Of a stretch of DNA of 64,000 nt, positions 19,268 to 50,378 are shown piece by piece. Each line of letters begins with the position of its first letter. Position 1 is the stretch's first letter. The notes below the pieces were generated by a model. That model was not told the origin of the DNA. It ran no database searches and saw nothing but the letters and a program-made list of their open reading frames with translations. The position numbers were made by a program, and so were the translations under genes. Source of the stretch: a virus (taxonomy: Duplodnaviria > Caudoviricetes); IMG/VR virus record IMGVR_UViG_3300008954_000046, positions 2,192 to 66,191 of that record; one strand, given 5' to 3'.

Positions 19268-22200
19268 ATGGCAAATGGGAATAACACATATTCTTCACAA
19301 GCATCTAGTGGGTTAGATAGTTTTAGTGATGGTTTAGTTGGAAATCAATTTACAGATGGAACTACTCAGTTTAGTCTAGGTAATTTTGGTATTTCCATGT
19401 CTGTTACCGATAAAGATAGTCGAGAATTTTCTTTAGGTAATTTTTCAGAACCAATCACTTTAGACAGTCTTAATTTTAGTAATGCACAAGAAGCAAAAAC
19501 CTTAGTAAATAATAGTTTAACTACTTTTATTAATTTTGATAGAAGTAAAATTACTAACTTTACTCTATATGGTTCCCTCGCAGAACGACTTAGAGTTGCG
19601 ACCCAAAATATAATTAAAAAATTTCCAGCTGCAATTGTAGTTAATCGAATAAGACGAGATTATCTAACAGGGGTCACCGCTACTAATATCGTCTTTGACC
19701 CAACAGAAAATGAAACCACATTAGATGTTAACATATCCCAAATGTCGAATCCATTTGCGATAGAGTACACAAGAATGGGGAATTTATTCTTTACTGGTAC
19801 TACCGAAGGGGTTGATGAGATTCGTAATATGACTAAAAATTATTCTAAGTATAGTTTATTTTTAGGTAGTAGGGAATTTGAGATAGAAGTAATGACACCT
19901 GCGACGTCTAATACTTCAGGTAATTTAAATATTACGGTAAAAGGTAATCCATTTAGTGGAGCAAGTTTTGTAACTCAACAACTAATACTTAAACCTAATA
20001 CACCTCAAACAGAAGAAATATTTAAAAAGTTAGATGATGTAGAACAATATTTGTTGAATAGGACAAGTACTCCTATTTATACCTCGAGTTTTAAGGTGTT
20101 AAGAGAAACTAATAGTGGTAAATTAGTAAGTTCGACAAAGAATTTAACGTGGCCTTTACAAGATACTTGGAATATTTTGATAGAAGGTGCACCATTTACA
20201 AATTATTTAGGGAGACTAAATGATATTGCTATTACTTTTGACGACTACAAAACTAACCTAGTCTCTCGTTTTTTAACTACGGGAGCACTTAAAGAATTTG
20301 ATACGGAAAACCAAGGATTTGAAAAGATATTACAAGTTTACGGAAGAAGTTTTGACCAAGTTAAAAAATATATAGACGGATTAGCTTACATGACCAATGT
20401 TAGTTATGACGGTATAAATAATATCCCAGATACTCTATTAAAGAATTTAGCACGCATGTTGGGGTGGGGAACACCAAGTTCCATCCAACAAGTTAACTTT
20501 TTAGACTCGATTTTTAATAGAGGTGGGGCAGAAGAATTTAAGGGGGAATCTACTAATAGTACCCCAGCAGAGTTGGACGTTGAACTCTATAGAAAAATTT
20601 TAGTTAACACTGCTTATCTTTTTAAATCAAAGGGAACAAGAAAATCTATAGAATTCTTATTACGATTGGTGGGTGCACCAGAAGCATTAATTGAATTTAA
20701 TGAACATGTTTATGTGGCTGGAAACCGTATAAATATGAATAAATTTGATAGTACTATTGAAAGTTTCTCGGGTGGAACCTACGTAGAGTCTATCCCTGTA
20801 GAAAGACAATATTATAGTGCAGTTACTGATTCACTAACCTTCCCACCAACGGTGGTGACAGGATTTACGTTTGGAACAGAAAAAGTAACTTTACCAGTCA
20901 CTGCTACTAGAGACCAATATCCAGTAGGGAAAGATGGTTATCCTAAACCACCTAAATTTAATAAAGACGGATACTTCCAATCAGGAGCTGGATGGTTTGA
21001 AAGAACACCAGAACATAAAAGCGACCAAGTAGTTAATGCAAAAAAATCCATTTTTACTGGTGACACCCCAGATATAAAAACACAATTTGCTCCTTTTACA
21101 TACGGAGAAAAATATTTAGATTATCTCAGAAAATTCCCTGATATGAAAATGGGATTCGATTTAGTTAAAACTGTAGATAATAAAAAATCATGGGTACAAG
21201 TCGACCCAAGAAAAACTAATGAGAGTTTTAGAAACCTAGCAAATAGACAATCTGTTCTTAATACTCGCGGAACCAAATATCATGTAGATTCCGATAGACA
21301 AGTATTAAATGTAAAGAATATAGAGTTATTCTTGAATGTAGGACAAGGATTAGAATGGGATGTATGGAACACTTCTAGTAAATTTGGTTGTCTATATGGA
21401 CTTACCCCTCTAGGAGATATAACAACACCTGGGATATTCCCACCACAATACTTATATCCATCTCCAGGTGGTCCAGATTGGACTACAATTCAGATAGACG
21501 CTTCTAAATTATCATTTTTTGAATTTGCAGAAAATTTTTGGAAAATCCACATAAATGTAAAAAACAGACAAACTATAGATGACGGACATGGAGGGGGTTA
21601 TCCTACTCTACAAATGGTTTATTTAGATTATTTAAACAGTAATAAAGTATGTGGTATTCCTAATAACAAATACACTTACGAAAAAATGTTAGACTTCGTA
21701 GATGGAATTAGTGATTATTGGGTGAGATTAATAGAACAAATGGTTCCTGCTACTACAATTTGGCAAGGAGGAGTAAAAATAGAAAATTCTGCTTTTCATA
21801 GATATAAATACGCGTATAAACATGAACCAGTCTGTGATGATTTACCGTGTTTGGGGTCTTTTGTGGAGTGTGTGGGGCCTAATTTTAATGAGGTACTCGT
21901 AAATGGGTTTATAGCGTCGGAAGGAATTAAGTTTAGTGGAGCAGGATGGTATAATAAAATAACATTAAACGGACAAGAATATACAGGAACATTAGGGCAT
22001 AATTATATCTACTATAGTAGTACTACAATTAGTGACATACCAAGTACAGATGCATGGTTGGATAATATGGTGTCTATCTTAAGTGGTATAACAGGTCAAT
22101 GTTTTAATTATTATGTTTTTGATGATACAACTACAGGAGCACCACCTATCACCAACCCAAGGACATTAGTACTCCAAGGGTGTTGTGAAGGGGGAGTAGA

Positions 22201-25200
22201 TTTATGGAATTATAATACTGGTCCAAGCCCAGGTACTTTTATGGCAGAGACATGTCTAGAATTAGATGTAGTACGTGCAAGATTAACCGCGGCAACTGCT
22301 AATATTTACGCATTCTATGACACTACTTCTTTAAGTGCATCGGTTGCATTTGCGGCAAGACAATCCCTCGATATGTATTCTACTCAAATTAGATTAACTG
22401 GTTGGAGTGGAAAAACTTATCATATACCAGTAGGACAAGAAAGATGGTTAGCTTGGGCTAATTATCCATGGTCAGGTGCTTTATCTGGAACTACAGCGGG
22501 AGGACCTTATTCTGCATTAAGAACAACAATGCCTAGTGGATGTGTAGGACCGCCATGGTTACAAAATGTTACTTCTAGGCACTATTGTGATGTTGATAAT
22601 GGAGAATTTGGAGTATTACCATACCAAGCAGATTTAACTGCTAATGGAAATGCAACCTTTAGTGGACAAGATAAGAATGTAATTGTAGTAAGTTTTGCAG
22701 ATGAGACTGCACCATATAGGAGCAATAACGCGCTTTCAATCTTTAATGGTTATCATGGAGGTGGTGGTGGAACTATAAGATATGGTGGAAAAGCAAGTTA
22801 TACAAACGCAAATGAACAACCAACCATGGGAATCCAAAATGATTGGAACGTAGGGTTTGATGTCACCCCATCTTACCCACAACCTAGACCTGCTTACCAG
22901 GAAGATTTTGATAACTTTAGAGGAGTCTTTAACAACTATAATTATTTTAGGTATTTCCTATACCCAATTATTGAAAATAATTTTACGGCAAAACTACATT
23001 TCCCACTTCAGGTTTATGGTGCAATGACAGGGGACTTTATAACTGGATGTACATGGACTAGTAGAACTGGAGATACATGTACAAATAACTTTGGTGTAGC
23101 AATAACTGGATATACAGCTACTTCAGGACAGACTGGTTGGCCTGTATATACCTTAGATTGTGTTTATGACGGTTTAACTGGAAGTACGTGTCCATTGTCA
23201 AAACGACCAAATAATCCAGATGGAACTGGATATACTTTATATAGAAAATATAAAACAAAAGTAGTTACGAGTGATTGGGATGTAGGTACAGGTCTCGGTA
23301 ACTTTACAGAAAACCCTACAGTAATGGGTGCGGGAGGTACCGTGTCAGCGATTACCACCAACTATAACCCATATACAGGTAGTAGTCTTTCGATGTATAA
23401 TAGTAAAACAGGATATTATGGTCCTGGGTTACAAAACTTTGGTTTCGGATGGAGAGGTAGTTTAGGAACAGAAGGTTGTACAACAGTACAAGGGGTAATT
23501 GGAGATGATTGTCTACCAGCACCGAATCCATGTTGGGACCCACAGTGTCCTGGTACCTATTATCGTAACAATGGTTGTATGGCAACTGGGGCAGTAGGTG
23601 CAAATGGACAGGGACTATTTCTTGCAGCGAACCCAATAAATCTTTTCCTAAACTCTGCAGGTGTAAGTGTATTCCAAGAAGACTTAACAGAATTCTTAAA
23701 AGCGGATACTGAATTATTCTTAGGAGATTATGATTATTGTGAACCTACATGTTCAGAACCTTGTGACCCAGATGCACAAACTGTGTGGATAGGGGGTATA
23801 GCATACGATAGAGGAGACATAGTACAATATAACAGACATTGTTGGTTAAGTAATGTTTCAGGAAACACTACAACTCCTAACCAGTTAATGGCTTCCTCAT
23901 TTACAGGTGAATGTGCAAATGAATTCACCGCAATGACACAAAATAATGCATGGACTCAAATTGATATTTCCCCTCTTAAATTCTTAGGAGGTAATGATTT
24001 CAGACCAAGAGAAGATTGTGAAAGTTTAAAAGAAATACCAGAAAATCCAGAAACTACAGGTACTACAGTTGTTACCGACCCATTGAGTTTTAAAGACGGA
24101 ATCTTTAATATTGGAGGTCAGGATTGTTATGAGTCAGCTTATTTTAATTGTGATGACCTTGTAAATCCATGTTCATGTGATGATGTTGTAAGTTCAGGAC
24201 AAACCTACGATGCGGGAATAGATGGAAACGGTCACGTTATACAAGCTTCATACACTGTCTACCAACCTGGAGATATTGTATGTTGTGGTGGGGGAACCAT
24301 GCAAGAAAATCAAGCTTATATATTAAGTGACTTTAGTTCCACTACATGGACACCAACTGGATGTACATTCGGAACTACCACTTGTACTGCTCAAGAGTTT
24401 AATTTAACTATTTGTAATATGGGAACAGGAGGACCCGGTCTTATAAATAATATGGCACAACAATATGGATGTTGGATACCATGTGATAATTTAGGACAAG
24501 CTGCAGTAATATTAGCGGGTACAGGAATTAGTTTGATAACAAATGCAGTAGACCCATGTGATAATCCTTCAGGCCTGAGACCACCACCACCCGATGATGA
24601 TGATGGACCGTGTGTGTGTGATATACTCCCTAGTCAAAAAACTACAGTAGTAGATACATTAGATGGGACGTTCAATCTAATTCCACAACCAGTATTAGAT
24701 TATAGGATTGAAGGAACTCAGCTTTTTTACAGTAGTAATGGAGCATATGAACCATTAAGTGCGGTCCCTTCAAACGCATATGAAGCAGCTACTGCACAAT
24801 ATTTCCCATGTTGTTTAGGGGATACTATAGAAATAATTCAACATCTATATAATAGCTCCGATAATAATCCAGCAACAACTTATTTAGGTCAGAGAAAATG
24901 GAAGATTAATGTAGATGCAATGACGTATTTATGGTTATATTTTGTAAGTGGACAGTCTATCCCGGGGACAGACCCAGCAGCCGATAAAGCATACATGAAA
25001 ATACCAAAAGACTTCGTAACTTTTAATCCTGCGGACTCTACTATAGTAACCTCTGCGGGTGCATACGAAGGATATCCAGCAACAACAGATTTAGCAGATA
25101 CTGATATTATTCTTTTTATGTCCCCAACTAGTAATCCTGGATATTTTGGATTTGTGAATGGACAAGGAGCTACTTTTACGTCTACAATGGAATATTGGGG

Positions 25201-28200
25201 TGACCCATCCATTCTCACCAACCCAGAACCATTGATGGTTAGAGGTGATATTGACCGTACATATCCTGACTTACCCCCAAGTACCTCAAATCTAAAATAT
25301 ATGTACAATATGGAATTTAATTTCATATGTAATAGTAGTCCCGCAAATAGTGTAGAATTTACTTCTAATCCTATAGGATACAACAGCAGTGCGACTCTTA
25401 ATGACATTCCAGAGAGTGAACCATGTCCTACTAATACAAAAGCAGCACTACCTAAAATGGCACCTAGAATGAGTTCTTCTGTAGAGTCACAAGGAGGTAT
25501 ATCCAATCAAAGAAGTAGTTCTCTAACCGAGACTTCAGGTGAAGGAGGGGTAATCACTTTTGACTATACCAAATATATGAGAAGGTATTATCCAGAACTT
25601 AATCCTTCTGATTATGAAATAGTTAGTGGAAATATTTACGCAGTCTTAAATAATGCTATTTATAAATCATCACAACAAATTCCATATAATCTTACAACCA
25701 ATGCAGTAGTTGCACAAGATAGAAAAGGAGTACAAACTTACCTTACTTATAATGATGGTACGGATTACCCTAAGGCTAAGTTAAGATGGATGATGGATGT
25801 AGTAACCCAATATCCTAATAACACAGTACAATTATTCTTTAGAAATAAAGAAATACAAGATGGGTTTGAATTCTCTTTGAAAGGAAAACAAATTGGAAAT
25901 GTAGAATACTATGATGTATATTATCCTAATTATGATAAACCAGGAAGTTATGGAGCGAGTAGGTTACCACAACTCAACTTTACTTTAAGTGGAGCATCTT
26001 TAATAACTGGAGAATTTTCTTCACCTAGTTATAGTCGTCTTCCAGTAGAGTATAAAAATTTACAAGATTGGGTAGACAGGAGTATAGGTAGTAATCCATT
26101 TAATAATAGTTATGTGAACTACCACCCAAATGGAAAGTTTCACAATTTTGAAATAAGAAGAAATTATACAACACCGATAGGGACAGAAGGTGGAGTTACT
26201 TACTACACCCCACTTAATAATTTAAATGTAGAGATAGTCGCAACCACTTATGGAAATTGGGATACATTTAAGAAAACTTCACCACCAATAAGTGGATTAA
26301 CAAGTCAGTATACTGGTTATACTAATTTATCACCGTATAATAATACTTTGGGAGTTGAAAATCTTACTAGTGATAAGGTATTTGATTTAAACTTTTCTTA
26401 CACCGCTTTTACAGGAACAACTGTTATACCAATGAATGGACCTCGTCGAAATGATTCTATTCTTATGGGGGCATCCACTTCTATAACTGCAGCAAAAGTC
26501 GCACCAGAATCGTTAAGTGAAAATAGTGGACCAGTAAACGTAGTTACTTCCGCTAATACCGATTACATCTACTATAAGGCAAAAAGAGATGGGTTATATA
26601 GATTCCAATACCAAGGAGCGGTAACTGTAGATTATTATGATACGGGATGGTGCCAATATTTAGAAAATGCTTATAAAAAGACAACCAATAATACTTACCC
26701 AGTTAATGATTTACATTATGAAAATTTAATTAATAGTTCAATTCTATATGTAGGAGGTGGGACTGATATTACAACTACTGAAGGATATGTTTCTAACCCC
26801 TACACTAATATTCCACCATATAATATGGTGACTCCGACCTATGGTTTTAATAGAGGGGAAGGAATTAACTATTTTGATGCTCAAATTTGGATAGAAAGAA
26901 AATTCTCAGGAGATACAGCAGACGGTGTAGAATATGTTTCGGCTGCGACTCTAAGTAAACAAGCTATTGGTAATAATAGTGAACAATATCCAGATAATAG
27001 TAACTTTTTAACTCTAGAAATTACACCTGCAGATATACTCGCGAATACTTACACAAGTTCAGGGACTACATGTAGTGCAACTACCAGTCTAGTATTTAGT
27101 AAAACTATAGACATTAGTTTAGACACCAAATGTGTTAAATTAAATAAAGGAGACGAAATAAGATTAAAAAATCTAGTTACATGGCATTCTACAAGTAAAT
27201 CTGGAGGAACAACAACATTAGATGTTAGAATAGGAAGTAAAAATGAAATAACCACTTCCGTCTATAAAGGGGTTAAGACAACTGAAACACAGACAAGATA
27301 CCCATGGTATCGAGTAAGTGTAGATGCGTGTAATTTACAAAAAATAAGAAAAAATTTAATATGGGACCCACAACAAAGAGCACAAACACACAGTTGGTTT
27401 AATGAATCTAAGAAAGAAAGCCTCTCCGAATATGGTACTTTATATCTCACCACGTATTTTGAAGGTAAGGATTTAATTGTTCCACCTAGATTGAAGACTC
27501 TTAAGGATATAAGTAATCTTACTTATTTAGATATACCTAAAGATTATACAGGACCTTTTGATTTACAAATTGTGGCAAAAAGAACCTCTAACTGGAATAA
27601 AGCTCTGGAAGAGGGTAGATTTACAGATGGAATCCAACCACTATCGAGCAAACCATTTAGTTTTAATGGGTTAGAAACCCAATGGACAATGCCTATTTTC
27701 ACTTCTGAGGAAGGTAAAATACCACCATTTCCTAATTACTCTCACACATATCTGGTAGAGACACAGTTTAGAGTTAAAGGGACTCCACGAAGTTTTTCTC
27801 ATGTAGTTGCATATACTGATGATATAAACACTTCGATAAGTTATTATAATAGAAGTAATGGTTTTAGTAATGTAGAGGCTCCATTAACAGGACAAGACTT
27901 TATTGTACAAAATGAACAACAAGATAAAAGAAAAATGTACTTTAGTCTTACTGACCTTATAATTGAAGGAGAACCATCAGTGATAAAAACTAATAATTAT
28001 GATTTATATTCTACAATGATAGATACAGTACACGAAACTTACGAATGTGAGTGTAGAACGGAAAGAGGAAAACTCATCGCCACCAACCGACTTGCATGCC
28101 CAGGGAATACTAATTGTATAAAGAAATGTCAAGAGTTTTGTAAAGCGACAAGACCTAGTCAAAAATTAATAGGAAAATTAACCAATCAAGGTATAAACAC

Positions 28201-28237
28201 TAACTCTAACACAGGGAAAGGAAGACTTAATTATTAA
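19268..28237 (+). CDS. giant baseplate wedge protein (gp7 / P2 gpI-like core) carrying vWA-like, CBM-like and Cys-rich inserts
   Basis: NIPDTLLKNLARMLGW and YRKILVNTAYLFKSKGTRKSIEFLLRLVG...IEFNE match the P2_I/gp7 wedge signature; 2989 aa. Confidence 0.75.
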   Translation: MANGNNTYSSQASSGLDSFSDGLVGNQFTDGTTQFSLGNFGISMSVTDKDSREFSLGNFSEPITLDSLNFSNAQEAKTLVNNSLTTFINFDRSKITNFTLYGSLAERLRVATQNIIKKFPAAIVVNRIRRDYLTGVTATNIVFDPTENETTLDVNISQMSNPFAIEYTRMGNLFFTGTTEGVDEIRNMTKNYSKYSLFLGSREFEIEVMTPATSNTSGNLNITVKGNPFSGASFVTQQLILKPNTPQTEEIFKKLDDVEQYLLNRTSTPIYTSSFKVLRETNSGKLVSSTKNLTWPLQDTWNILIEGAPFTNYLGRLNDIAITFDDYKTNLVSRFLTTGALKEFDTENQGFEKILQVYGRSFDQVKKYIDGLAYMTNVSYDGINNIPDTLLKNLARMLGWGTPSSIQQVNFLDSIFNRGGAEEFKGESTNSTPAELDVELYRKILVNTAYLFKSKGTRKSIEFLLRLVGAPEALIEFNEHVYVAGNRINMNKFDSTIESFSGGTYVESIPVERQYYSAVTDSLTFPPTVVTGFTFGTEKVTLPVTATRDQYPVGKDGYPKPPKFNKDGYFQSGAGWFERTPEHKSDQVVNAKKSIFTGDTPDIKTQFAPFTYGEKYLDYLRKFPDMKMGFDLVKTVDNKKSWVQVDPRKTNESFRNLANRQSVLNTRGTKYHVDSDRQVLNVKNIELFLNVGQGLEWDVWNTSSKFGCLYGLTPLGDITTPGIFPPQYLYPSPGGPDWTTIQIDASKLSFFEFAENFWKIHINVKNRQTIDDGHGGGYPTLQMVYLDYLNSNKVCGIPNNKYTYEKMLDFVDGISDYWVRLIEQMVPATTIWQGGVKIENSAFHRYKYAYKHEPVCDDLPCLGSFVECVGPNFNEVLVNGFIASEGIKFSGAGWYNKITLNGQEYTGTLGHNYIYYSSTTISDIPSTDAWLDNMVSILSGITGQCFNYYVFDDTTTGAPPITNPRTLVLQGCCEGGVDLWNYNTGPSPGTFMAETCLELDVVRARLTAATANIYAFYDTTSLSASVAFAARQSLDMYSTQIRLTGWSGKTYHIPVGQERWLAWANYPWSGALSGTTAGGPYSALRTTMPSGCVGPPWLQNVTSRHYCDVDNGEFGVLPYQADLTANGNATFSGQDKNVIVVSFADETAPYRSNNALSIFNGYHGGGGGTIRYGGKASYTNANEQPTMGIQNDWNVGFDVTPSYPQPRPAYQEDFDNFRGVFNNYNYFRYFLYPIIENNFTAKLHFPLQVYGAMTGDFITGCTWTSRTGDTCTNNFGVAITGYTATSGQTGWPVYTLDCVYDGLTGSTCPLSKRPNNPDGTGYTLYRKYKTKVVTSDWDVGTGLGNFTENPTVMGAGGTVSAITTNYNPYTGSSLSMYNSKTGYYGPGLQNFGFGWRGSLGTEGCTTVQGVIGDDCLPAPNPCWDPQCPGTYYRNNGCMATGAVGANGQGLFLAANPINLFLNSAGVSVFQEDLTEFLKADTELFLGDYDYCEPTCSEPCDPDAQTVWIGGIAYDRGDIVQYNRHCWLSNVSGNTTTPNQLMASSFTGECANEFTAMTQNNAWTQIDISPLKFLGGNDFRPREDCESLKEIPENPETTGTTVVTDPLSFKDGIFNIGGQDCYESAYFNCDDLVNPCSCDDVVSSGQTYDAGIDGNGHVIQASYTVYQPGDIVCCGGGTMQENQAYILSDFSSTTWTPTGCTFGTTTCTAQEFNLTICNMGTGGPGLINNMAQQYGCWIPCDNLGQAAVILAGTGISLITNAVDPCDNPSGLRPPPPDDDDGPCVCDILPSQKTTVVDTLDGTFNLIPQPVLDYRIEGTQLFYSSNGAYEPLSAVPSNAYEAATAQYFPCCLGDTIEIIQHLYNSSDNNPATTYLGQRKWKINVDAMTYLWLYFVSGQSIPGTDPAADKAYMKIPKDFVTFNPADSTIVTSAGAYEGYPATTDLADTDIILFMSPTSNPGYFGFVNGQGATFTSTMEYWGDPSILTNPEPLMVRGDIDRTYPDLPPSTSNLKYMYNMEFNFICNSSPANSVEFTSNPIGYNSSATLNDIPESEPCPTNTKAALPKMAPRMSSSVESQGGISNQRSSSLTETSGEGGVITFDYTKYMRRYYPELNPSDYEIVSGNIYAVLNNAIYKSSQQIPYNLTTNAVVAQDRKGVQTYLTYNDGTDYPKAKLRWMMDVVTQYPNNTVQLFFRNKEIQDGFEFSLKGKQIGNVEYYDVYYPNYDKPGSYGASRLPQLNFTLSGASLITGEFSSPSYSRLPVEYKNLQDWVDRSIGSNPFNNSYVNYHPNGKFHNFEIRRNYTTPIGTEGGVTYYTPLNNLNVEIVATTYGNWDTFKKTSPPISGLTSQYTGYTNLSPYNNTLGVENLTSDKVFDLNFSYTAFTGTTVIPMNGPRRNDSILMGASTSITAAKVAPESLSENSGPVNVVTSANTDYIYYKAKRDGLYRFQYQGAVTVDYYDTGWCQYLENAYKKTTNNTYPVNDLHYENLINSSILYVGGGTDITTTEGYVSNPYTNIPPYNMVTPTYGFNRGEGINYFDAQIWIERKFSGDTADGVEYVSAATLSKQAIGNNSEQYPDNSNFLTLEITPADILANTYTSSGTTCSATTSLVFSKTIDISLDTKCVKLNKGDEIRLKNLVTWHSTSKSGGTTTLDVRIGSKNEITTSVYKGVKTTETQTRYPWYRVSVDACNLQKIRKNLIWDPQQRAQTHSWFNESKKESLSEYGTLYLTTYFEGKDLIVPPRLKTLKDISNLTYLDIPKDYTGPFDLQIVAKRTSNWNKALEEGRFTDGIQPLSSKPFSFNGLETQWTMPIFTSEEGKIPPFPNYSHTYLVETQFRVKGTPRSFSHVVAYTDDINTSISYYNRSNGFSNVEAPLTGQDFIVQNEQQDKRKMYFSLTDLIIEGEPSVIKTNNYDLYSTMIDTVHETYECECRTERGKLIATNRLACPGNTNCIKKCQEFCKATRPSQKLIGKLTNQGINTNSNTGKGRLNY

Positions 28238-28242
28238 AAGTA

Positions 28243-31200
28243 ATGGGAGGACCAATTTTTAACTCATACAATGTAAGATATACCTTAAGTGGTAGTTGTA
28301 CTGGAAGTATCACTAATGTGGTTCTAGAAGGTGGTGTAGGGCCCTATTCTTTTCAGTGGTTAGGAGCACCAATCGGAACAGGATACCCCATTACCTATAC
28401 CGCAGCAACTAGTAATATCCATGGTTTATGTACGGGTTCATATTCTGGAACAGTAACAGATATGCAAGGTTCTGCTACCACAGAAGTTATTGAAGTGGGA
28501 GAAATTCCTAACGTATCTCTATCTGCAACAGTAGTAAATAACGGATGTACAATTAGTCCTTCACAATTCTGTTCTATTAGGGTACATAGATTTACCCACA
28601 CCCAACCAGAAGTTAGATATGAATTATACAGAGATGGTATTATCACTCAAAAAGCCACTTATTTAGGTTCGGGTAATCATCCACATTTATTTGAAAATTT
28701 AAGAACAGGAAGTTATACTCTTACCGCATATGACGGAAATATCTTTTCTTATGTACAGACCGCAATCACTGGATGTACAACTGGGGACGCTAATACAGGA
28801 GCAATGTCCGCCGCGACTATTGTAGAAAATTGGGATAGATGGGCAGTATGGGGTCAAGGAAGAACTACCTTTGACAACACTAACTACTACGGAACAGGAC
28901 TATTTGACCAACCATATTTCTTTACTAACTTTAAAGATGGTGATGGGGGGTATTATGTGACAGGGGGTAACTTTTTAACTGATGAAGAATTAGAAGATGA
29001 AACAAAAGCATTTGAGGACGAAACGGCGTATTCAGATTCAGATGTGATTTTAGAATCTGATTACGCACCTACTAAAAGTGGAGAGGCTAGTACGGGAGAT
29101 GAGAGTAGAAGTAGTAGTGACTCGAGTAGTAGGAGTGATGATACGGCATTAGAAAATAACTACGCTCCTTATTTTTGGTTTTATACAGGCACAACATTTG
29201 CACAGAATGGTGATGACCGATTAACAGATAACTCAAAACAATGGTTTTACCAACCTCCTTTATCGGAACAAGCTTCTTATGAAGGAGAGGATTTAGGTCC
29301 ATCGGGAGTGGCAAAAGCCGTTGCTAATTGGGGGTCATTTTACTATAGTACTAAAATTAATAGATTTGTAATTTTACAATATACAGCATTAGGAGGAACA
29401 AATTACGAATGGGCAACTTTTAGACCTACCAGAGACCAAGGAAGATTTGGAAACCCAACCGCGGCAGATACACTAACCGACAATACTCAATGGGGGTGTG
29501 CAGATACTACAGCAGACCAATATACTGTAAGTGGTGCACCACAAGTAGTCGTTAGTGCAGTAGAAAAATATAATGCAAAAGACCACCCAGATTTAAAACC
29601 TACTAGGCCAGGAAGTTGTATGATTCAAGGAACTGCTAACACAGGAGTAGCTAATGGATTTATAAGTAGTTGTGCTTATTTGAATTACACTCATGAAGTT
29701 ACTTTAGGGTCAACTATGAATGATAACGATTCAATTGGTGTAGTTTTATGTTGGTTCAGGGATACAGAAGGAGATTATGGACCTAAAGGTACTTCCCATA
29801 GTATTACAGCAACACTCGGGAATCAAAATAACTCCAACCCACCAAGATTAACTATAGGTTATAATACAGGTCACAGTACATATGCTTTTAGAAGTATAGA
29901 TTTAGAACAACCTTGGAATAGTTCCTTTAGTAATACTGTAGGTTCTAGTTTAAGTACATATACGACCGCGGGTTCTCAGTATTTCCGTGACCAAGGATTT
30001 GTGAGAATGAGGATAAAAAGAAGTGGAACACAAGGAGAAAACTTTTTTATTGAAATGACGGATACTATGGGTAATACTGGAGGTATCCAAACTAATGCTA
30101 CTAAAAATATCGGGGACCTTAATCCATATAATAGTGCGAATAACTTCAGTTTCTCTCTACTCGACCCAACCACATGGTCAGGAAATACAACTACTGCACA
30201 AGATTACGTTACAGGAAAAGAATTAGTGAAATTTATCGGGTCTCAAAAATACGGATATTATGTAAGTTCCCAAGGAGCAGCTCAGTTTTTTGATATTGCT
30301 TTTTCTGGTTATCAGACTAATTTTATACCCGTAGCCACTCAAGCGGGAGCTAGTGAATCTGGTTACTTTGAGTTATTCAACTCTACCACGGTTAATACAG
30401 ACCATAGTGACACCTCAATAGATAATTGGAATAAACATTTCGGCGGTGGGTATCCTGGTATAGTAGAAGTACCAGTCATAAAACCTACAGTTTCCGTACA
30501 AATGCAAACATTTATTGAACCAGACGTGATAATTTCAGGAGCTACTAAAATTAATTACCCGAGCAGCCAATATGCTGTCTACTATTGTGATGATATTGAA
30601 GATGTACCATTGACTTTAACATGGGTTAATGAGACTGTTGAAATGAGAACAAATAAATCTTATGGTAAATATAGTGTATTCCCATATGTTCCCGAAGCGG
30701 GAGAATTCTTAAGTAAACCATTAGTAAATAGAATGTTTGATAATACACCAATTGTAGTGTCAGGAGCAACAGGTCTTTTCACTCAAGCTTCCGACAATCT
30801 CCCAATATCATATTTCCCATGTCAAGATTATTGGGAATATTGCATCAAACCAAGTTCTATTTTTAAAGATAGGGTAGATAAAATTTATTATACAGGATGT
30901 AAATCGAATGTGTTATCAGGAACGACTAATACTTGGTACGATACCTTAGATTTAAATAGACGAGGAAATGAACAGTATGGTATCTATGACAGAAATAAAG
31001 ACTATTATTTAATTCTAGTGAGTAGGCCTACCCTCCCTATAATTAGAACTGCAAATTTCGCATATGCAAATGAAGGTCCATGTGAGGTATACAATCAACA
31101 AGTAATAGCAATGTCCGCCAGTACCACCGCTGCTACGGGAAGTTTAATTGTTTCTGGAAGAACATGGGTTACTCCTCTTAATTATCCATGTAATGGACAA

Positions 31201-31992: not shown

Positions 31993-32006
31993 AGTTTAGG
32001 TTATAA

Positions 32007-32013
32007 TATTTAT
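32007..32013 (+). promoter_or_regulatory. TATTTAT box (putative late promoter)
   Basis: 22 nt before ATG 32036. Confidence 0.6.
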
Positions 32014-32035
32014 TAAAAGATAAAACAAAAAAAAG

Positions 32036-34525
32036 ATGAGCTATATATTAAAAAATAATTCTGGGTTAGTAACCGTCAGGTTAACAGACGCAGGAAGAAA
32101 GAAATTATCCCAGGGAAATTTATCCCTGTCACTCTTCCAACTAGGGGATAGTGAGTTCTGCTATGATTGTTATACAGATGTATTGCAATTAGATTCGGGT
32201 ATATGGGTGACGGAACCAAAATGGAACGCACAAAATATATCCAACGTAGCAGCCGAAAGAAATAAACAAAATGTTAAATACCCTATACCAGTATTATCTA
32301 ATAATAGTGGGTCAACATACGGGGTTTTATCACCAGCACATAGTGAACAACCAGTCTATAATACTGCCAGACCAAGAGGATTTTTCTCAGGCTCATCTAG
32401 TAACTTCTCTCAGAATGGTCTAGCAGGTATGGGATTCAGTGCGTTTACGAGTGCAGGTTATGTTTTATCAGCTAATTGGTGTTTCCCATTGTCTGCAATG
32501 ACAGGTGGGTCGGTGATGTATCTATGGAGTGGTAATACACAATGTAGTAATCAAGATTATTGGGCACAACCAGGGGATTTGGTAATGGTACAATATGTTA
32601 ATCCATTTACACCCAACCACTTATATCCAGGATGTGACGGAACCCAAGGAGGAACTGGTGGATTATTAAATATGCCAACCAATTTCTCCACCCCATATCT
32701 TTTCTATAATGTAATTAGTGGGGCCACTAGTGCGGCCACCCACACTAAAATAACTCAACAATATATCACAGTAGATAGGAATTTACCAGATTGGACTTAT
32801 TATAATTTCCCTCATTTTGGACCAGGTCTGGTTCCATCTGCACAAACTACATGTGCTAGAGTATTGATTATACCAGGAGGTGGTGTCACAAGTTACTGGG
32901 GTGCAGACACCCCAATTCCTTATTGGTCTCCAGGTTCCTTATCTTTTGATAATAATTGTGACGTATCCGTTAAAGATGTGAATATTTGGAATATGAATAT
33001 TAACTGGACTCAATGGGACGGTAATAATATTAATGCAGGAACTGTTGCAGGAGTTAATAAAAATGTATATGAAAATGTAGATGGTTATGGTTCTACAGGT
33101 TATTGTAGTACGAAAGAATACCTGGGTTATAATAGTGACGATGGTCAATTTGATACCACAAACGCTCAAGATTATTATGGAGCAAATAATGTAGAAGGGT
33201 ACGAACCTGAAACATCGGGAACTTTTATCAGAGATTCTTTTGGTAAAATTAGAACTATTTTACCGTCTGACCAGAGATGTGTTGCGGTCTTACATTATAC
33301 TAACTATACTATTTCTAATTTCTATGGTGAGAAATTTGCATTAGAACCTAACGGTACAGTATTAAATGGTATAGGAGAAATGGATAACTTTAAAATTCAT
33401 CTTCCGTATATTATGTGGCATAAGAAAAAAGGAAGTGGCACAGGTTTAGGAGATGAATGCCAAATAGGTCAAACTTTTTATGTGGACCCTCCAGGATTCT
33501 CAGTTGCAGAAGAACACTATATAGAGTCTACACCAAATCAAGACATGAACACACCAGGAATTAGGTATTATCATTTATGGGATAATAATTTAGCTGCTAC
33601 CAATTCTACAGGACAAGGTGTCCCAAATAGAGTAGGTAAAGTTTTTCCTGATTTACAGATGATTACTATAGATGACCAAGAACTTATTGCAGCACTTTCT
33701 TATAAGTCCAATAGAAACTGGACACTTCCGATGCCAAAACTAGAATTAATTCCAGCGGGAACTAATTGTAGTGGAACAGTAAGTCAGGTAGGACTATTTA
33801 ATTCAACACCAAACACAGAAGAGTTATATGTGTCTTATCTAATGGGAAGTGTGACAGGGTATACTACAGGAATGCATTGTAACTATTATAGTAAAATTAT
33901 CGGCGATACTTCAGCAGGTTCCAGAGATGTAACACTTGCCTTTGGTCCTGAATGGCCTTACTTGAGAGGTTATAACGCTGCCAATTGTACTTATTCAGGA
34001 ACAGGATGGCAAGCAGATTCATTTAATGTCATATTCCAAAAGGTTCCGTACGGAACTTATCCAGACCCAGCTAATTGGAAAATTTATGATATAACGAGTC
34101 AAGTGAGTAACCATACACCATCAAATCCAATATTTGGTACAAATATGGCTAATAGTAATTGTAGTTTTTACATCAATAATGACATTTACACAGGGGCAAC
34201 GGGTTATACTTTCCACAATTATATTAATGTTCCATTGAATAATGACCAAGAACCTTGGTTACTACAATTTGGAGACGAAGAATTTTTCTTTGGTAATTTA
34301 GAAACTGATATAATGGCTACAATATATGAAATGAAATATAATGTGACCGTAAGTAATAATCAATTTAACACCTCTTTAAACCCAACATGGGCAAATGCAA
34401 ATACTGTTAGAATTACAGAGATTGGACTATTTGACGCTCAAAAAGATTTGATGGCGATAGCAAAATTAAGAAGTCCAGTAAAGAGACAAGGAACACAAAC
34501 ATTTGTGGTTAAAATTGATTATTAA
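32036..34525 (+). CDS. tail-fibre anchor (tail-collar/DUF3751-like) protein with large internal insert
   Basis: N-terminal RLTDAGRKKLSQGNL.LSLFQLGDSE and C-terminal VRITEIGLFDAQKDLMAIAKLRSPVKR resemble the two halves of the P2 gpH-type fibre N-domain. Confidence 0.7.
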   Translation: MSYILKNNSGLVTVRLTDAGRKKLSQGNLSLSLFQLGDSEFCYDCYTDVLQLDSGIWVTEPKWNAQNISNVAAERNKQNVKYPIPVLSNNSGSTYGVLSPAHSEQPVYNTARPRGFFSGSSSNFSQNGLAGMGFSAFTSAGYVLSANWCFPLSAMTGGSVMYLWSGNTQCSNQDYWAQPGDLVMVQYVNPFTPNHLYPGCDGTQGGTGGLLNMPTNFSTPYLFYNVISGATSAATHTKITQQYITVDRNLPDWTYYNFPHFGPGLVPSAQTTCARVLIIPGGGVTSYWGADTPIPYWSPGSLSFDNNCDVSVKDVNIWNMNINWTQWDGNNINAGTVAGVNKNVYENVDGYGSTGYCSTKEYLGYNSDDGQFDTTNAQDYYGANNVEGYEPETSGTFIRDSFGKIRTILPSDQRCVAVLHYTNYTISNFYGEKFALEPNGTVLNGIGEMDNFKIHLPYIMWHKKKGSGTGLGDECQIGQTFYVDPPGFSVAEEHYIESTPNQDMNTPGIRYYHLWDNNLAATNSTGQGVPNRVGKVFPDLQMITIDDQELIAALSYKSNRNWTLPMPKLELIPAGTNCSGTVSQVGLFNSTPNTEELYVSYLMGSVTGYTTGMHCNYYSKIIGDTSAGSRDVTLAFGPEWPYLRGYNAANCTYSGTGWQADSFNVIFQKVPYGTYPDPANWKIYDITSQVSNHTPSNPIFGTNMANSNCSFYINNDIYTGATGYTFHNYINVPLNNDQEPWLLQFGDEEFFFGNLETDIMATIYEMKYNVTVSNNQFNTSLNPTWANANTVRITEIGLFDAQKDLMAIAKLRSPVKRQGTQTFVVKIDY

Positions 34526-34533
34526 GTTTTTAA

Positions 34534-37500
34534 ATGGGATTTTTAGAATTAGGAAATATAAAAATTAAAACACTTGAGTTATTCCTTACCGACAAGGGTA
34601 AAGAATTAATGCTTGAGCAAAATGGGTTAGGGCTGCATGACTTAATTAGAAGATTTACACTTTATGATGAAGATTTTGATTATAGGACAACTTCATTGTA
34701 TTGGGAAGACGGACTATCTCCACAACCCCAAAATCCCAACCCACCAGGTAGTGACCAGGGACTAGTTAATGATTTTGGACTGAACCCGAATACGTCTTCT
34801 AATCCCAAAGCGGACGCTCCTACTTCAGGAACGAGTGCCTATTTCGATATTACAGATGTAAGAGGCCATAGAAATAGATTCATCCAAAATTGTTTTAACT
34901 TTACCGCTTATACTTCAGGAATTACAGAATGTACTAACATCTATTGTTTTTATGATTGTACTAGTGTGTCCGAAGCTATTGCTATAGACGCAAAAGCAGG
35001 TATTGATACATGGACCACTGGTTATAGAGCGGCTAACCCAGATTGGTTTGGAAAGGTATTCCATGTTACTTTATATGGAGAGAGATGGATAAATTCTTCT
35101 TATTATCCGTGGCATGGAGAATTAGATACTGTTAGTTATTCTGTAAGTAGTTCACCTAACTCCCCAAGTACCAGTATGGTTAATGCGGCTACTAATTCCG
35201 TGTATTATCCACCAGGAGGTGGAACATCTCAAATAGTAGCAAGTAATCCTACGGGTGAACTATATGGGGTAACAGGTAATTTTTGTGGAACAGAAAGTAA
35301 TAACGCTTATGATGCATCATTTCAAGTCCTTCCTCCAGGAACATATTTAGATGATTCAGGTTCTCCAGGTTCTACAGCTTCTAGAGGTAGTAAATTAGTA
35401 TATTATGTTACAGGATGTAGTCATACACAACAAACAAATACTAATCACCAGGGTAATCTGAATAAAGAAATAGGTCCTGTTAATACCAGTACCCATGATT
35501 TACCTTACACTGCTACAACTACTGGTACAATATGGGGAATCCAACCAGGAGGTTCATTATCTCCCTCTTTTACACATAACTCTTTTGTCTCGTTTGACCC
35601 TTCACAAATTGATGGGGATTGTGCTGCTTTAGATTATTGGTTTACTGCAAATTTAGGGATGGCACTGTTTGATGATTTATGTGCAGATAATTGTTGTTCC
35701 GATGATTATGTGGAGACGGGGAGTATATTTAGTTGTGGATGTCAGGTGTACGATAATGTAATACAACGTAGTACTGGGACGACAATTCAATCAACCTATG
35801 GAGGTTTATATCCTGGTTTTGCTTATGGAATATGTAAACACGTTAATGCAGGTGCAGGAATAACCGCACCCGGAGGAGTATTTAGTGGAAGTCCAATAGG
35901 TCAGGTTGCAGTAACAGGCTCAACCGTATTCAATAAGAGTAATTATCATTATCCTTGTGAAATATTTAAAGGAGGTGATAGAAATGTGATGATAATTAAC
36001 ATGACCGATGAATCCGCGGCGTGTAAAGGGAACTCATGGGGAGGTATTTTCCCTCTGGGAGAAAAGAAATATTATGGTAAAGGAAGTGTAAGTTTAGGTG
36101 CACCTTCAGTCTCTACAATCTCACAATGGGGTACCTATACTGGAGAAAGAGGTTATCACGGAGGTCAAGGTCAAGCAGGTGGGTCTACTGATGACATCGA
36201 CGCGACTTTCTTTGGAACAGCATCCGTCAAACAGGCAGAGGCTATGGGATGGAATGCAGATGGAACACAAAGTTTGGGACCTAATGGGTGTCATGATTTA
36301 TCTGGTCTTATGCCCGACCCACAACCAACTCCAGATTTCCAGTATGGTCAAGATTTATTTATGAGAACCTTACCTTTTTATGATAATTTTATCGGTTTTG
36401 CATATCCAGTAGTAAAAGACCAAAATGCTTGGTTATTTCATTATGTACAACATGTGTATGGTGCAGTTATAGGAGGAACTTTAGATTTATCGGCAGGAGC
36501 TCCTTATGAAATACCAGTCAACAAAACAATTTCTCAATTTACCACTTCCTACCAACAAGGATTCGGAGCATTAAGTGGGGCTAATCCTTATTGTGAGTTA
36601 ATCCCTGTAATATATCACAAACCAGACCCAGCAATAGACGGTCCTTATGGCCCTACTAAAACACCAGCGTGGGGTAATGACGGTAGTGGAGGATGTGCAG
36701 GTCAGATGGTACCAACTACTTCATGTATAGAATCACATACTTCTACTTGGGCGGCCGACTACCCATCAGGACTTATAAATTATGGATGGGGGATAAATCC
36801 AACCGTTGGATGTTTGGGAGGGGTGCCATGTAGTAGTTCTGCTATTTTTACTTCACAAGATTTCCAAAATGATTTAAGTGCATTTATTTCAGGTGGTACA
36901 AGAAGTATAGTTGAATTAAGTGGATGTACTTACTGTCAATGTTTACCAGCAGTCTTTATTAATAGAATTGGACCACCAGACCCAGTTATAGTAGATAGTG
37001 GATGTCTCTGTCCAGATGGAACCTACTCACCAGCATGTTGTCCAGATGTTCCAGATATTGTAGAATCTTTATGTGGTCCACACCCGACAAGTTCAAGTAC
37101 ATTACGTAGTGTGAGAACTATTACCCCAACAAATCAATCTCCAACTCTTGATAATAGTGTTGATAGTAATCAAGTTTTAAGAAATTACGGTGGTGAAGGA
37201 AATTGGGGGAACGCACAAATGATGGGAGGAATGGACTTATCTACTGTTAGTTTATCTAAACAAAGAAGAGGACTAAGTGTTGATATTAAAGCTCAAATTC
37301 AACCATTTGGTTATGAAAGAAACGGAGAGACCCTTTTAGATTATGACGTTTTATTAACTAATGAAAGTTACATGGATGATTATAAGTTGACAAAAGGAGA
37401 TGCCTCTTATTATTGGATTATAGAGAGTGGACTAGAAGAGTTACGTCCAGGTTACATACCAAGACTTAAAAAATGTAATCAAATAGACGCATCAGAAGTA

Positions 37501-37713
37501 AGAATAAAAGCATTAGGTGGAGGAAACGAAGATTTCATTTATTTAAATACGATTAGAACCTTAAATGAAGGCCATTATTGGAAACACCAACAGACAGAAT
37601 ATTGTATAACGTTAGCTGTAGAAATACAAGGAAAAATGTTAATCAACACCAAAAGAATAAGAATTATGGGTAATCCACATAGTGGATGGCACATTAAATC
37701 ACTAACTAGTTAA
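34534..37713 (+). CDS. tail appendage protein with fibre-anchor-like N-terminus and vWA-like domain
   Basis: LFLTDKGKELML...IRRFTLYDEDFDY N-terminus; colinear similarity to the middle of the 2989-aa protein. Confidence 0.65.
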   Translation: MGFLELGNIKIKTLELFLTDKGKELMLEQNGLGLHDLIRRFTLYDEDFDYRTTSLYWEDGLSPQPQNPNPPGSDQGLVNDFGLNPNTSSNPKADAPTSGTSAYFDITDVRGHRNRFIQNCFNFTAYTSGITECTNIYCFYDCTSVSEAIAIDAKAGIDTWTTGYRAANPDWFGKVFHVTLYGERWINSSYYPWHGELDTVSYSVSSSPNSPSTSMVNAATNSVYYPPGGGTSQIVASNPTGELYGVTGNFCGTESNNAYDASFQVLPPGTYLDDSGSPGSTASRGSKLVYYVTGCSHTQQTNTNHQGNLNKEIGPVNTSTHDLPYTATTTGTIWGIQPGGSLSPSFTHNSFVSFDPSQIDGDCAALDYWFTANLGMALFDDLCADNCCSDDYVETGSIFSCGCQVYDNVIQRSTGTTIQSTYGGLYPGFAYGICKHVNAGAGITAPGGVFSGSPIGQVAVTGSTVFNKSNYHYPCEIFKGGDRNVMIINMTDESAACKGNSWGGIFPLGEKKYYGKGSVSLGAPSVSTISQWGTYTGERGYHGGQGQAGGSTDDIDATFFGTASVKQAEAMGWNADGTQSLGPNGCHDLSGLMPDPQPTPDFQYGQDLFMRTLPFYDNFIGFAYPVVKDQNAWLFHYVQHVYGAVIGGTLDLSAGAPYEIPVNKTISQFTTSYQQGFGALSGANPYCELIPVIYHKPDPAIDGPYGPTKTPAWGNDGSGGCAGQMVPTTSCIESHTSTWAADYPSGLINYGWGINPTVGCLGGVPCSSSAIFTSQDFQNDLSAFISGGTRSIVELSGCTYCQCLPAVFINRIGPPDPVIVDSGCLCPDGTYSPACCPDVPDIVESLCGPHPTSSSTLRSVRTITPTNQSPTLDNSVDSNQVLRNYGGEGNWGNAQMMGGMDLSTVSLSKQRRGLSVDIKAQIQPFGYERNGETLLDYDVLLTNESYMDDYKLTKGDASYYWIIESGLEELRPGYIPRLKKCNQIDASEVRIKALGGGNEDFIYLNTIRTLNEGHYWKHQQTEYCITLAVEIQGKMLINTKRIRIMGNPHSGWHIKSLTS

Positions 37714-37743
37714 CAGTTTACAAATAATAAATGATTATTAAGA

Positions 37744-37750
37744 TAATTAT
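37744..37750 (+). promoter_or_regulatory. TAATTAT variant of the late box
   Basis: 20 nt before ATG 37771; the same variant occurs at 2802-2808 before nrdJ. Confidence 0.4.
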
Positions 37751-37770
37751 AGAATAAAGAATAAAAGAAA

Positions 37771-39465: not shown

Positions 39466-39469
39466 AATT

Positions 39470-39898: not shown

Positions 39899-39922
39899 TA
39901 AAAAGAGATAAAATAAGAAAAC

Positions 39923-41101
39923 ATGGAATATAAAAATATAGCACCAGGCGATAAAACAGTACAAAGTGAAATTATACCTTTTGGAACCCTAAACCCCAAC
40001 TTCAATGGATATAATTCGTTAACTGGAACCAATTTACGATTTACAGTAGCACAAAGAAATCCTAATAATGGGAGAGTGTTTTCTAACCTTTACCCAGCAT
40101 TTAGTTTACCTACAGCAAATTTTGAAGTCACAGGATGGGATATAGATTGGGGGTCTAATTCATTAAGTGAGATTGATAGTGCGGGGGAAGTACTAGTGGT
40201 AGAATTTCCAAAAAATACATATGGGGAATTAATTGATGGAAGAACTATTAAATTAGACATAAATGTAAACAGTGGGAGTACACCCAACAATTTCTTTGTT
40301 AATTGTTACAGTTCATACTTTGCAGGATTTAACGCATCGAGTGACCCAAGTGCAGAAGCAGAAGTGTTTGGACACACTTCAGCTTTTAATTATGTTCCAC
40401 CAGTAAGTAATCCAGGGGTAGGAGATTTGAGTACGAATGTTGCATTTTTATTTAGTGACCAAATTAAACCACCTGTTGCAGGAGGAAGTTGGTCGGACGG
40501 ATATACACTTACACAAATTCCTAAAGGATATACAGATGGAGTAGAGACCGCTTACAATTTTGATAATGGTAAAGTAATTGGTACTTCTACTGATGGTGGT
40601 AGTGGAATGGACACTCCAGTGGGTGTTTGTTATTTAGATAAAGGGTTCTGTGTAGTAACACACCCAACCCTTGTAAATAATTGGAATTTCTCTGCATCTA
40701 CTAAAATAGGAACAGGAATAGCATATACAGGGACAAGTTCTGGAGCCACTCAAGTATTTTTCAATGGAGGAAATACCCAAGCAACCTTCTTTAGTTTTGA
40801 AAAACAATGGGTATTAAATGTGTTATGTAGAGCAGAATCTAATGAATTTTATTTAACTCAAAATACAACCGCAGCCGATTTAAATCCTACAGTCGTAACA
40901 GGACCAGTACTTTTACCTAATACTAATGAACTAGGAGCGGGAACCTTTTATGATTTAGATAGTGTGCAAAAACCAGCATATATTACAGAAGTCGCCTTAT
41001 ATGACCAAAATGGAACGATGTTAGCAATTGCAAAACCAGATAGACCAGTTAAGAAATTATCTAATGAACCAGCATATTTTAATTTAAAATTTAGATTTTA
41101 A
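39923..41101 (+). CDS. tail protein with fibre-anchor-like C-terminus
   Basis: C-terminal YITEVALYDQNGTMLAIAKPDRPVKK is paralogous to the end of 32036..34525. Confidence 0.68.
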   Translation: MEYKNIAPGDKTVQSEIIPFGTLNPNFNGYNSLTGTNLRFTVAQRNPNNGRVFSNLYPAFSLPTANFEVTGWDIDWGSNSLSEIDSAGEVLVVEFPKNTYGELIDGRTIKLDINVNSGSTPNNFFVNCYSSYFAGFNASSDPSAEAEVFGHTSAFNYVPPVSNPGVGDLSTNVAFLFSDQIKPPVAGGSWSDGYTLTQIPKGYTDGVETAYNFDNGKVIGTSTDGGSGMDTPVGVCYLDKGFCVVTHPTLVNNWNFSASTKIGTGIAYTGTSSGATQVFFNGGNTQATFFSFEKQWVLNVLCRAESNEFYLTQNTTAADLNPTVVTGPVLLPNTNELGAGTFYDLDSVQKPAYITEVALYDQNGTMLAIAKPDRPVKKLSNEPAYFNLKFRF

Positions 41102-50356: not shown

Positions 50357-50378
50357 TAACCTTTATATAAAAAACTAT

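Follow-up and report, generated by a model that had tools for sequence, protein, structure and literature searches.

Dispersed [S/T]-[G/A]-x-T motifs in the outer tail proteins of an aquatic jumbo phage clade, a possible sequon for virion glycosylation

Among the described systems closest to the one considered here, HMW1C/NGT is a cytoplasmic N-glycosyltransferase which reads N-x-S/T on the HMW1 adhesin, and in Bacillus the BclA protein is O-glycosylated at Thr in the G-x-T triplets of its collagen-like region. The O-glycosylation system of Bacteroidota, with the sequon D-(S/T)-(A/I/L/V/M/T), modifies proteins which have been exported to the periplasm; phage tails, by contrast, are assembled in the cytoplasm. 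The DNA analysed here, hereafter called the window, is a stretch of 64,000 nucleotides from the virus record IMGVR_UViG_3300008954_000046 (Duplodnaviria; Caudoviricetes; positions 2,192 to 66,191 of the record). It makes up nearly the whole of a contig of 66,191 bases, which CheckV estimated to be about 20 % of the genome, and its source is a jumbo phage of aquatic origin, uncultured and with a capsid of the T4 type. Between positions 19268 and 41101 the window encodes a cluster of large tail proteins in which the tetrapeptide [S/T]-[G/A]-x-T recurs about four times as often as expected by chance. We tentatively read this motif as a sequon of the glycosylation type.

Natural virion glycosylation of tailed phages was found, in the limited literature searched, only for the capsids and tail tubes of mycobacteriophages, in which glycans are attached at the C-termini of the capsid and tail-tube subunits (Freeman et al. 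2023, as cited in PMC12619734 and PMC10877033). In marine T4-like myophages, glycosyltransferase genes are located inside the tail-fibre 'host recognition cluster' and have been assigned to modification of the host lipopolysaccharide (LPS), according to passages of PMC7029224. No report of a dispersed tail-fibre sequon which a phage-encoded protein glycosyltransferase would read was found in the same limited collection.

The motif was counted in 39 open reading frames (ORFs) of the window and compared with 1000 residue shuffles of each. Four large proteins, all encoded on the plus strand, together contained 64 sites, whereas the shuffles predicted 15.6. The largest, a distal tail or fibre protein of 2989 residues (19268-28237), had 32 sites (7.3 ± 2.5 expected), with dense clusters at residues 1259-1360 and 2342-2645. 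It is followed by a tail-fibre-like protein of 1249 residues (28243-31992; phrog_33406 'tail fiber protein', E = 1.8e-5) with 15 sites (4.2 expected), a tail spike or fibre protein of 829 residues (32036-34525) with 10 sites (1.7 expected), which served as the anchor of the comparative analysis, and a virion protein of 1059 residues (34534-37713; phrog_37948 'virion structural protein', E = 5.2e-6), in which the excess was weaker (7 sites, 2.7 expected, p = 0.016). The recurrence described in the first-pass annotation of the window is thus real: the counts were within two of its estimates by eye, all the example strings which it had quoted were found in the sequences, and its compositional expectation of fewer than 10 sites for the 2989-residue protein was correct (7.3 to 9.2, depending on the shuffle). 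Neighbouring structural proteins, which it had described as poor in the motif, had counts at expectation, with 0 sites (0.8 expected) in the Baseplate_J-like protein of 612 residues, 2 (1.2) in a protein of 1166 residues, 1 (1.9) in one of 906 and 2 (1.8) in one of 564. Borderline values were obtained for the Thr-rich baseplate or tail protein of 635 residues encoded just upstream of the cluster (13681-15588, plus strand; 5 sites, 2.0 expected, p = 0.049, or 0.05-0.09 under local shuffles) and for the protein of 392 residues at the end of the fibre cluster (39923-41101, plus strand; 3 sites, 1.0 expected, p = 0.087), the homologues of which are enriched.

The enrichment over composition-preserving shuffles, proposed in the same annotation as a check, was retained with 500 dipeptide-preserving shuffles, which gave 21.0 ± 4.0 sites for the four proteins, with a maximum of 34, and 9.2 for the 2989-residue protein. 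Shuffling within blocks of 20, 40 or 100 residues left the expectations unchanged, and the excess stayed. When the 24 orderings of the four motif elements were compared, [S/T]-[G/A]-x-T alone stood out (z = 12.2); the second-ranked ordering, T-[G/A]-x-[S/T] (z = 6.3), overlaps the motif, and all others had z ≤ 4.1. An artefact of composition or low complexity was ruled out by these three controls. At the three fixed positions the codons followed the background synonymous usage and the Ser codons came from both families, so the motif is neither a DNA repeat, as its varying codons had already suggested, nor a codon artefact. Selection acts on the level of the protein, not of the DNA.

Spacing of the sites was aperiodic except for overlapping copies at a distance of 3 (106 vs 21.8 expected, counted in redundant relatives); other peaks were minor. 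Neither the regular spacing nor the conserved flanks of a periodic fibre repeat, such as a beta-solenoid, a collagen-like fibre or a triple beta-helix, were seen, the flanks being conserved at position -1 only. With their over-represented T-G-x-T-G-x-T copies the tail proteins resemble BclA, in which G-x-T with a hydroxyl acceptor is likewise carried on an exposed fibre. Unlike BclA, they lack both long G-x-y runs and a collagen helix, S/T is needed before G/A, and the sites are scattered in globular domains.

The sharpness of the motif was assessed from the ratio of observed to expected counts (O/E) in the window proteins and in 150 homologues, with the S/T position numbered 0, G/A 1 and the final Thr 3. 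The complete pattern had an O/E of about 4 and patterns with two of the three elements were at chance (0.83-1.02), namely 0.98 and 0.93 (window and homologues, respectively) when position 0 was not S/T, 0.99 and 1.02 when position 3 was not Thr and 0.83 and 0.89 when S/T stood at position 0 without G/A at position 1. The three positions are strictly cooperative, and a hydroxyl residue is needed at both outer positions. At position 0, Ser was enriched 5.0-5.6-fold and Thr 3.2-3.3-fold, with values of 0.9-1.4 for Asp and 1.09-1.12 for Asn. Gly and Ala were each enriched about 4-fold at position 1, all other residues having values of 0-1.5. At position 3, Thr (4.1-4.3-fold) was followed by Cys (2.4-2.65), His (1.8-2.2) and Ser (1.3-1.7), and was not replaced by Val (1.0-1.1) or Ile (0.85-0.94). 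In 1224 unique contexts from the relatives, Pro was found at x at 0.2-fold, D, E, K and R were depleted from -3 to +5 and position -1 preferred F, L, W, Y and M, nothing else being conserved; in the window, 44 of the 64 sites had a hydrophobic residue at -1, compared with a background of 33 %. Cys was 2.7-fold enriched at x.

In these properties the motif is like the sequon of HMW1C/NGT, which is also a short ordered motif that ends in a hydroxyl residue, prefers Thr over Ser, tolerates Cys and excludes Pro at x, and whose many sites lie on a large beta-rich protein modified in the cytoplasm, as is proposed here. The candidate acceptor is, however, Ser/Thr and not Asn, and the N-glycosylation sequon of PglB or NGT type, N-x-S/T (x not Pro), was itself at chance level, with 88 sites vs 76.9 (O/E 1.14) in the window proteins and 1702 vs 1810.3 (0.94) in the homologues. 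The O-glycosylation of Bacteroidota, which is probably also the host phylum, has a hydroxyl acceptor as well, but its sequon was not enriched: 22 sites vs 21.5 (O/E 1.02) were counted in the four window proteins and 503 vs 483.3 (1.04) in the 150 homologues. The motif is therefore distinct from that sequon, as the first-pass annotation had stated.

A single-sequence scan of IMG/VR gave 43 loci related to that of the 829-residue protein, and a profile scan raised this number to at least 565. Eighty homologues contained 1078 sites (153.1 expected), with p ≤ 0.01 in 79 of them, and 19 representatives with less than 60 % identity contained 236 (34.5 expected). The matches listed (37-75 % identity) did not supply clade members which had lost the motif, as needed for a test of gain or loss. 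At the first 43 loci the excess extended to the homologues of the 2989-residue protein (427 sites vs 104.6, O/E 4.1), the 1249-residue protein (514 vs 109.3, O/E 4.7), the 829-residue protein (O/E 4.5), the 392-residue protein (28 homologues, 128 vs 40.6, O/E 3.2) and the 1059-residue protein (nine ORFs, 26 vs 9.4, O/E 2.8). Unmatched neighbouring ORFs at these loci had an O/E of 3.2 and homologues of the 564-residue protein 1.4, and the replication and recombination proteins nearby, counted with redundant sequences, had 3 sites vs about 18.5 expected.

The relative G001 (210,568 bases) is syntenic with almost the entire window and additionally encodes a T4-type Gp23 capsid protein, a tail sheath of 1131 residues, DnaK and ClpB. 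Eleven of its virion ORFs contained 119 sites (29.8 expected), whereas the remaining 139 ORFs contained 56 (54.8 expected), and the enrichment is restricted to proteins of the virion surface. The enriched set comprised fibre and baseplate-periphery proteins, the sheath and several proteins without an assigned family, and included a protein of 334 residues with a weak endosialidase-chaperone match. The sheath was enriched in all six relatives examined (observed/expected 14/4.1 in G001, and 16/3.6, 16/3.8, 13/3.1, 9/3.4 and 7/2.6 in the others). Residues 125-414 of the G001 sheath hold 13 of its 14 sites, the core matched by Pfam (835-1119) holds none, and the last 300 residues of the other five sheaths are without any site.

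This distribution also bears on a direct function of the motif, for example as a hydroxyl-rich patch which binds a host or environmental polysaccharide and is selected for its copy number. Confinement to exposed, variable parts of host-contacting proteins and the requirement for hydroxyl residues would suit such a patch. Glycans are, however, normally bound in three-dimensional pockets and not by a tetrapeptide of strict order whose second residue is tiny, the sheath does not contact the receptor with its outer domain, and lectin-type families were not detected, which together make this explanation very improbable.

As outgroups, the tail modules of T4, Flavobacterium phage immuto, Microcystis phage Mel-JY01 and the uncultured LR756508 were analysed, and a motif excess was not clear in any of the four. 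In T4 the observed and expected counts were 1/4.2 for gp34, 1/0.9 for gp35, 2/0.5 for gp36 and 7/3.3 for gp37. The 13 baseplate and tail proteins of immuto summed to 37 sites vs 23.7, with no protein above z 2.2, and no ORF of LR756508 (17 ORFs) or Mel-JY01 (16 ORFs) exceeded z 1.6. These counts rule out that the motif is a generic property of tail fibres.

The 236 sites of the 19 representatives of the 829-residue family fell into 85 alignment columns, 40 of which were singletons. Pairs of representatives, at a mean identity of 46 %, had 23 % of their sites in common, compared with 12 % expected from the average conservation of the residue classes. Sorted into thirds by conservation, the positions of the family gave an O/E of 4.3 (most variable), 4.9 (middle) and 0.42 (most conserved). 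In this family the density of sites is maintained while their positions turn over quickly, as in the N-x-S/T sites of viral glycoproteins, which shift in position and are kept in number.

A sequon read in trans is favoured because of the cooperativity, the need for hydroxyl residues, the exclusion of Pro, the restriction to exposed virion parts across unrelated folds with chance level elsewhere, and the turnover, properties which are hard to obtain from folding preference alone. In this proposal Φ-[S/T]-[G/A]-x-T (Φ, hydrophobic) would be a short linear recognition site, kept in many copies in those loops of the distal tail proteins which are variable and face the surface, and in the relatives it would also mark the outer domain of the tail sheath. 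Its reader would most likely be a phage-encoded cytoplasmic transferase, the favoured candidate being a glycosyltransferase from the sugar-synthesis island which lies between the sheath and capsid genes of the relatives. Before the tail is assembled, or while it is, one of the two hydroxyl residues would receive a glycan, and the outcome would be a shifting sugar coat on the exposed parts of the tail. We infer that something is attached, which residues may accept it and which enzyme may act. In its full form, to which we would give somewhat less than an even chance, the proposal is that an aquatic jumbo phage clade with at least 565 loci in IMG/VR runs its own cytoplasmic O-glycosylation, with Φ-[S/T]-[G/A]-x-T as an undescribed sequon and a glycan coat on fibres, spikes and the exterior of the sheath. 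Like mycobacteriophages of the Che8 type, such phages would coat their own structural proteins by means of their own cytoplasmic glycosyltransferases. Unlike the sites described in the excerpts cited above for mycobacteriophages, the candidate sites are tetrapeptides in the interior of the chains, scattered over fibres and sheath, and the capsid is not enriched.

The first-pass annotation had also taken the motif for the recognition site of a modifying enzyme. The part which stood is the selection, independent of fold, on outer virion proteins; the enzyme candidate, a possible glycosyltransferase-like ORF starting at 63733, was not supported, being a stub of 89 residues without a Pfam match. 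Its homologue of 308 residues in the nearest relative, G006, had a sub-threshold match to DUF6734 and DUF6734-like neighbours in the ESM Atlas. The ORF had no homologue in G001 and no PDB relative, and no mention of DUF6734 was found in the literature searched.

In the large relatives tested, GT2 glycosyltransferase matches above cut-off were found in five of five, with 2-5 GT2-type matches each. In G001 the sugar-synthesis genes form an island at 117-137 kb, on one strand between the sheath and capsid genes, the baseplate genes being located at 63-71 kb. The island encodes a Glyco_tranf_2_5 + Glyco_transf_4 fusion (GT2_5+GT4), an FkbM methyltransferase, a GT2, an APH-fold kinase, a DegT aminotransferase, a GDP-mannose 4,6-dehydratase, a fusion of an HMGL-like domain with a cytidylyltransferase, and a second GT2 followed, after 7 bases, by a small motif-enriched ORF. 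The GT2_5+GT4 fusion was present with 47-65 % identity in four of the five other large relatives and was not found at E ≤ 1e-5 in the complete genomes of immuto, T4, LR756508 and Mel-JY01. The presence of GT2 alone was dropped as a discriminator, because immuto carries two unrelated GT2 genes without a significant motif excess. The clade is similar to the marine T4-like myophages in that aquatic T4-type phages have sugar genes among or near their structural genes (PMC7029224, in part); it differs from the account given there, which assigns the genes to LPS and reports no fibre motif in the passages concerned.

In three relatives (G003, G004 and G007) a GT2 gene coding for 337-351 residues lies about 10 kb downstream of the 829-residue homologue on the same strand. 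It occupies the place at which the window and G001 have recombination genes, and is an insertion of variable presence. Adjacency of a glycosyltransferase to the fibre cluster was dropped as evidence, GT2 being missing there in the window and in G001.

The gene content also offers candidates for a trans-acting reader which is not a glycosyltransferase, such as a kinase, another Ser/Thr-modifying enzyme or a fibre-assembly chaperone. The sequon-like statistics would apply equally to such a reader, and the island of G001 contains the APH-family kinase-fold gene. The clade has DnaJ (59560-60648 in the window), G001 has DnaK and ClpB, and a conserved ORF of 197 residues (41103-41696), 64 % identical in G001, stands right after the fibre cluster. 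Against this, protein kinase families were not found in the window. The binding sites of DnaK-type chaperones are hydrophobic cores flanked by basic residues, and basic residues are depleted around the motif; a chaperone site would also have no obvious need for two hydroxyl residues. We consider a reader of this kind improbable.

Several observations weigh against glycosylation as the function of the motif. No transferase was found in the window or in the 66-kb contig, which covers about 20 % of the genome. The co-occurrence of glycosyltransferases and motif has the direction expected of a sequon but comes from a single clade and therefore represents one evolutionary event, and immuto, as said, has GT2 genes and no significant excess. 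The major capsid protein of G001 was not enriched (3 vs 1.3), and such glycosyltransferases in marine myophages are mostly interpreted as enzymes which modify LPS or DNA (passages of PMC7029224 and PMC12619734). Turnover was not equally evident everywhere: the C-terminal family of the 2989-residue protein was evenly enriched (4.2-4.8), with an O/E of 4.57 in its conserved third, and in an alignment of 39 sequences of the 829-residue family, which has 406 sites, 209 fell into only 11 columns, each with a site in 11-28 sequences and in part located in conserved blocks. Fibres of some relatives hold the motif in regular repeats, such as ...SGGTvTGQT... and a duplicated unit of 33 residues, and the hydrophobic -1 position and charge-poor neighbourhood would also suit the half-buried end of a strand. 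Finally, both AlphaFold2 (AF2) models of motif-bearing proteins were of low to middling confidence.

Matches to known proteins were scarce. The motif-bearing proteins were almost without Pfam or PHROGs matches, those of the 1249-residue protein to SprB repeat and CHU_C in Pfam being sub-threshold only. The 829-residue protein gave no match in tblastn against cultured phages, PDB sequence searches with the motif-bearing proteins gave nothing useful, and the ESM Atlas contained viral hypothetical clusters only. The AF2 model of the 829-residue protein (pLDDT 63.9) had no Foldseek match at E ≤ 0.001; approximately its first 140 residues showed a weak likeness to the N-terminal domains of tailspikes (probability 0.94, E = 0.02). 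In the model of residues 2090-2989 of the 2989-residue protein (pLDDT 58.3), residues 2317-2690 (228-601 of the model) aligned to TNF-like jelly rolls with a VIA-align Z of 6.7, which lies below the level that VIA-align calls clear (rmsd 3.6 over 131 residues), and phage receptor-binding heads and the BclA head were found lower in the same list. On the basis of this model the motif-dense stretch possibly forms a jelly roll of the TNF/C1q-like kind, interrupted by insertions. According to the DSSP strings, about 14 of the 20 sites in the two models lie in coil or at strand ends, three in short helices and three inside strands, approximately half of the 20 being in blocks with pLDDT below 60.

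These models bring up a purely structural explanation, in which the motif would be preferred at strand exits or loop entries in the beta-rich outer domains of this clade, having arisen repeatedly because it folds well at such places, with nothing attached. Many of the modelled sites stand before or after a beta-strand, and position -1 is mostly hydrophobic, as noted above. About half of the sites of the 829-residue family are conserved in position, copies occur inside the regular fibre repeats of the relatives and overlapping copies are frequent at a spacing of 3. The motif also resembles L-S-G-G-T-x-T-G, a classic type of string in tail fibres, for which no relevant paper was found in the literature searched. 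Other features speak against this explanation. Chance level in the 139 other ORFs of G001, and likewise in the tail modules of the four outgroup phages, means that the motif has no general folding advantage. A generic ST/Asx capping turn would accept D or N in place of S/T, whereas D-[G/A]-x-T (O/E 0.93-1.4) and N-[G/A]-x-T (1.09-1.12) showed that these are not interchangeable; a strand would likewise tolerate V or I in place of Thr, and the equal enrichment of G and A is contrary to a positive-phi turn. Flanks are not conserved and there is no periodicity, and the sites are carried by unrelated folds (the possible TNF-like head, the insertion domain of the sheath and the spike). Even in the 11 recurrent columns x is free (SAFT, SALT, SANT, SAQT); the other sites of that alignment are scattered, many of them inside lineage-specific insertions, and 77 % of the sites are unshared in pairs at 46 % identity, with the density nonetheless maintained. 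We regard a structural role without attachment as somewhat less likely than a sequon of the glycosylation type.

If glycosylation at the motif were confirmed, a sequence rule for it would be legible directly in metagenomes. It would explain the sugar-synthesis genes beside the structural genes of large aquatic phages, which would then serve the virion and not the modification of host LPS or DNA. The host-recognition organelles of an abundant phage group would be glycan-shielded, with a bearing on adsorption, stability, stickiness of the particles in seawater and predictions of receptor binding from sequence only. If the motif is structural instead, it would be a clade-specific rule of loop design which current fold predictors miss.

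The 2989-residue ORF corresponds to two ORFs in G001 and about 24 other relatives, one for the N part (residues approximately 120-950) and one for the C part (approximately 2090-2980). The middle (approximately 950-2090) is present in two close relatives only (L001 and L002), and the window gene is therefore a fused, expanded form. At its C-terminus (approximately 27800-28234), after the possible TNF/C1q-like head, the alignment consensus ends in several small Cys-rich modules of the types C-x-Y-Y-C-x-C-G-Q and G-x-C-x-x-G-x-Y-W-C, many cysteines for a fibre which is assembled in the cytoplasm.

Fibre genes beside the 829-residue homologue are wholly different between relatives, as at L038:5182-6873 and L035:4829-6871. 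One of these two fibres has the duplicated 33-residue unit and YadA-like GG-x-x-N-x-A repeats, and the other had a PDB match to fibre proteins of the Bdellovibrio Bd2133 type (E = 1.1e-7). Their C-terminal 170 residues or so are identical, a sign of cassette exchange. The 197-residue ORF immediately 3' of the fibre cluster (plus strand) has no assigned family; the fibres which precede it are only 24-41 % identical in G001, and from its position and conservation it is a candidate fibre-assembly factor.

The G+C content of the window is low (0.30-0.38). At its 5' start it encodes a 5'-3' exonuclease, a DnaB-type helicase and a class II ribonucleotide reductase, downstream of which lies the gene of the Baseplate_J-like protein (5583-7421), followed by a series of very large ORFs without an assigned family. 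The remainder encodes a primase, SbcCD-like proteins, a sigma-70-family factor (50340-51179, plus strand), an amidase, a full-length DnaJ (plus strand), ThyX and a DruA-like protein. The closest database phages, judged from the baseplate protein (26-28 % identity), are an uncultured 484-kb phage, Microcystis phage Mel-JY01 and Flavobacterium phage immuto, and the host of the nearest cultured phage is Flavobacterium. In gene content the present clade resembles the moraphages, a group of large phages from aquatic habitats which have DnaK/DnaJ and four core groups of glycosyltransferases and are predicted to infect Flavobacteriia (excerpts of PMC12619734). From this likeness and the kinship with the Flavobacterium phage, the host phylum is likely to be Bacteroidota. 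The DnaK (Hsp70, E = 6e-261) and ClpB-type disaggregase of G001 are encoded at 162878-167035, a set akin to the chaperones described for moraphages in the same excerpts.

A homologue of DruA, a protein of the Druantia defence system (Pfam E = 1.6e-26), is encoded at 61958-63127 on the plus strand. It is 85 % identical to its counterpart in G001, and G006 also has one. The retention of a component of a defence system in a clade of lytic-looking jumbo phages was unexpected.

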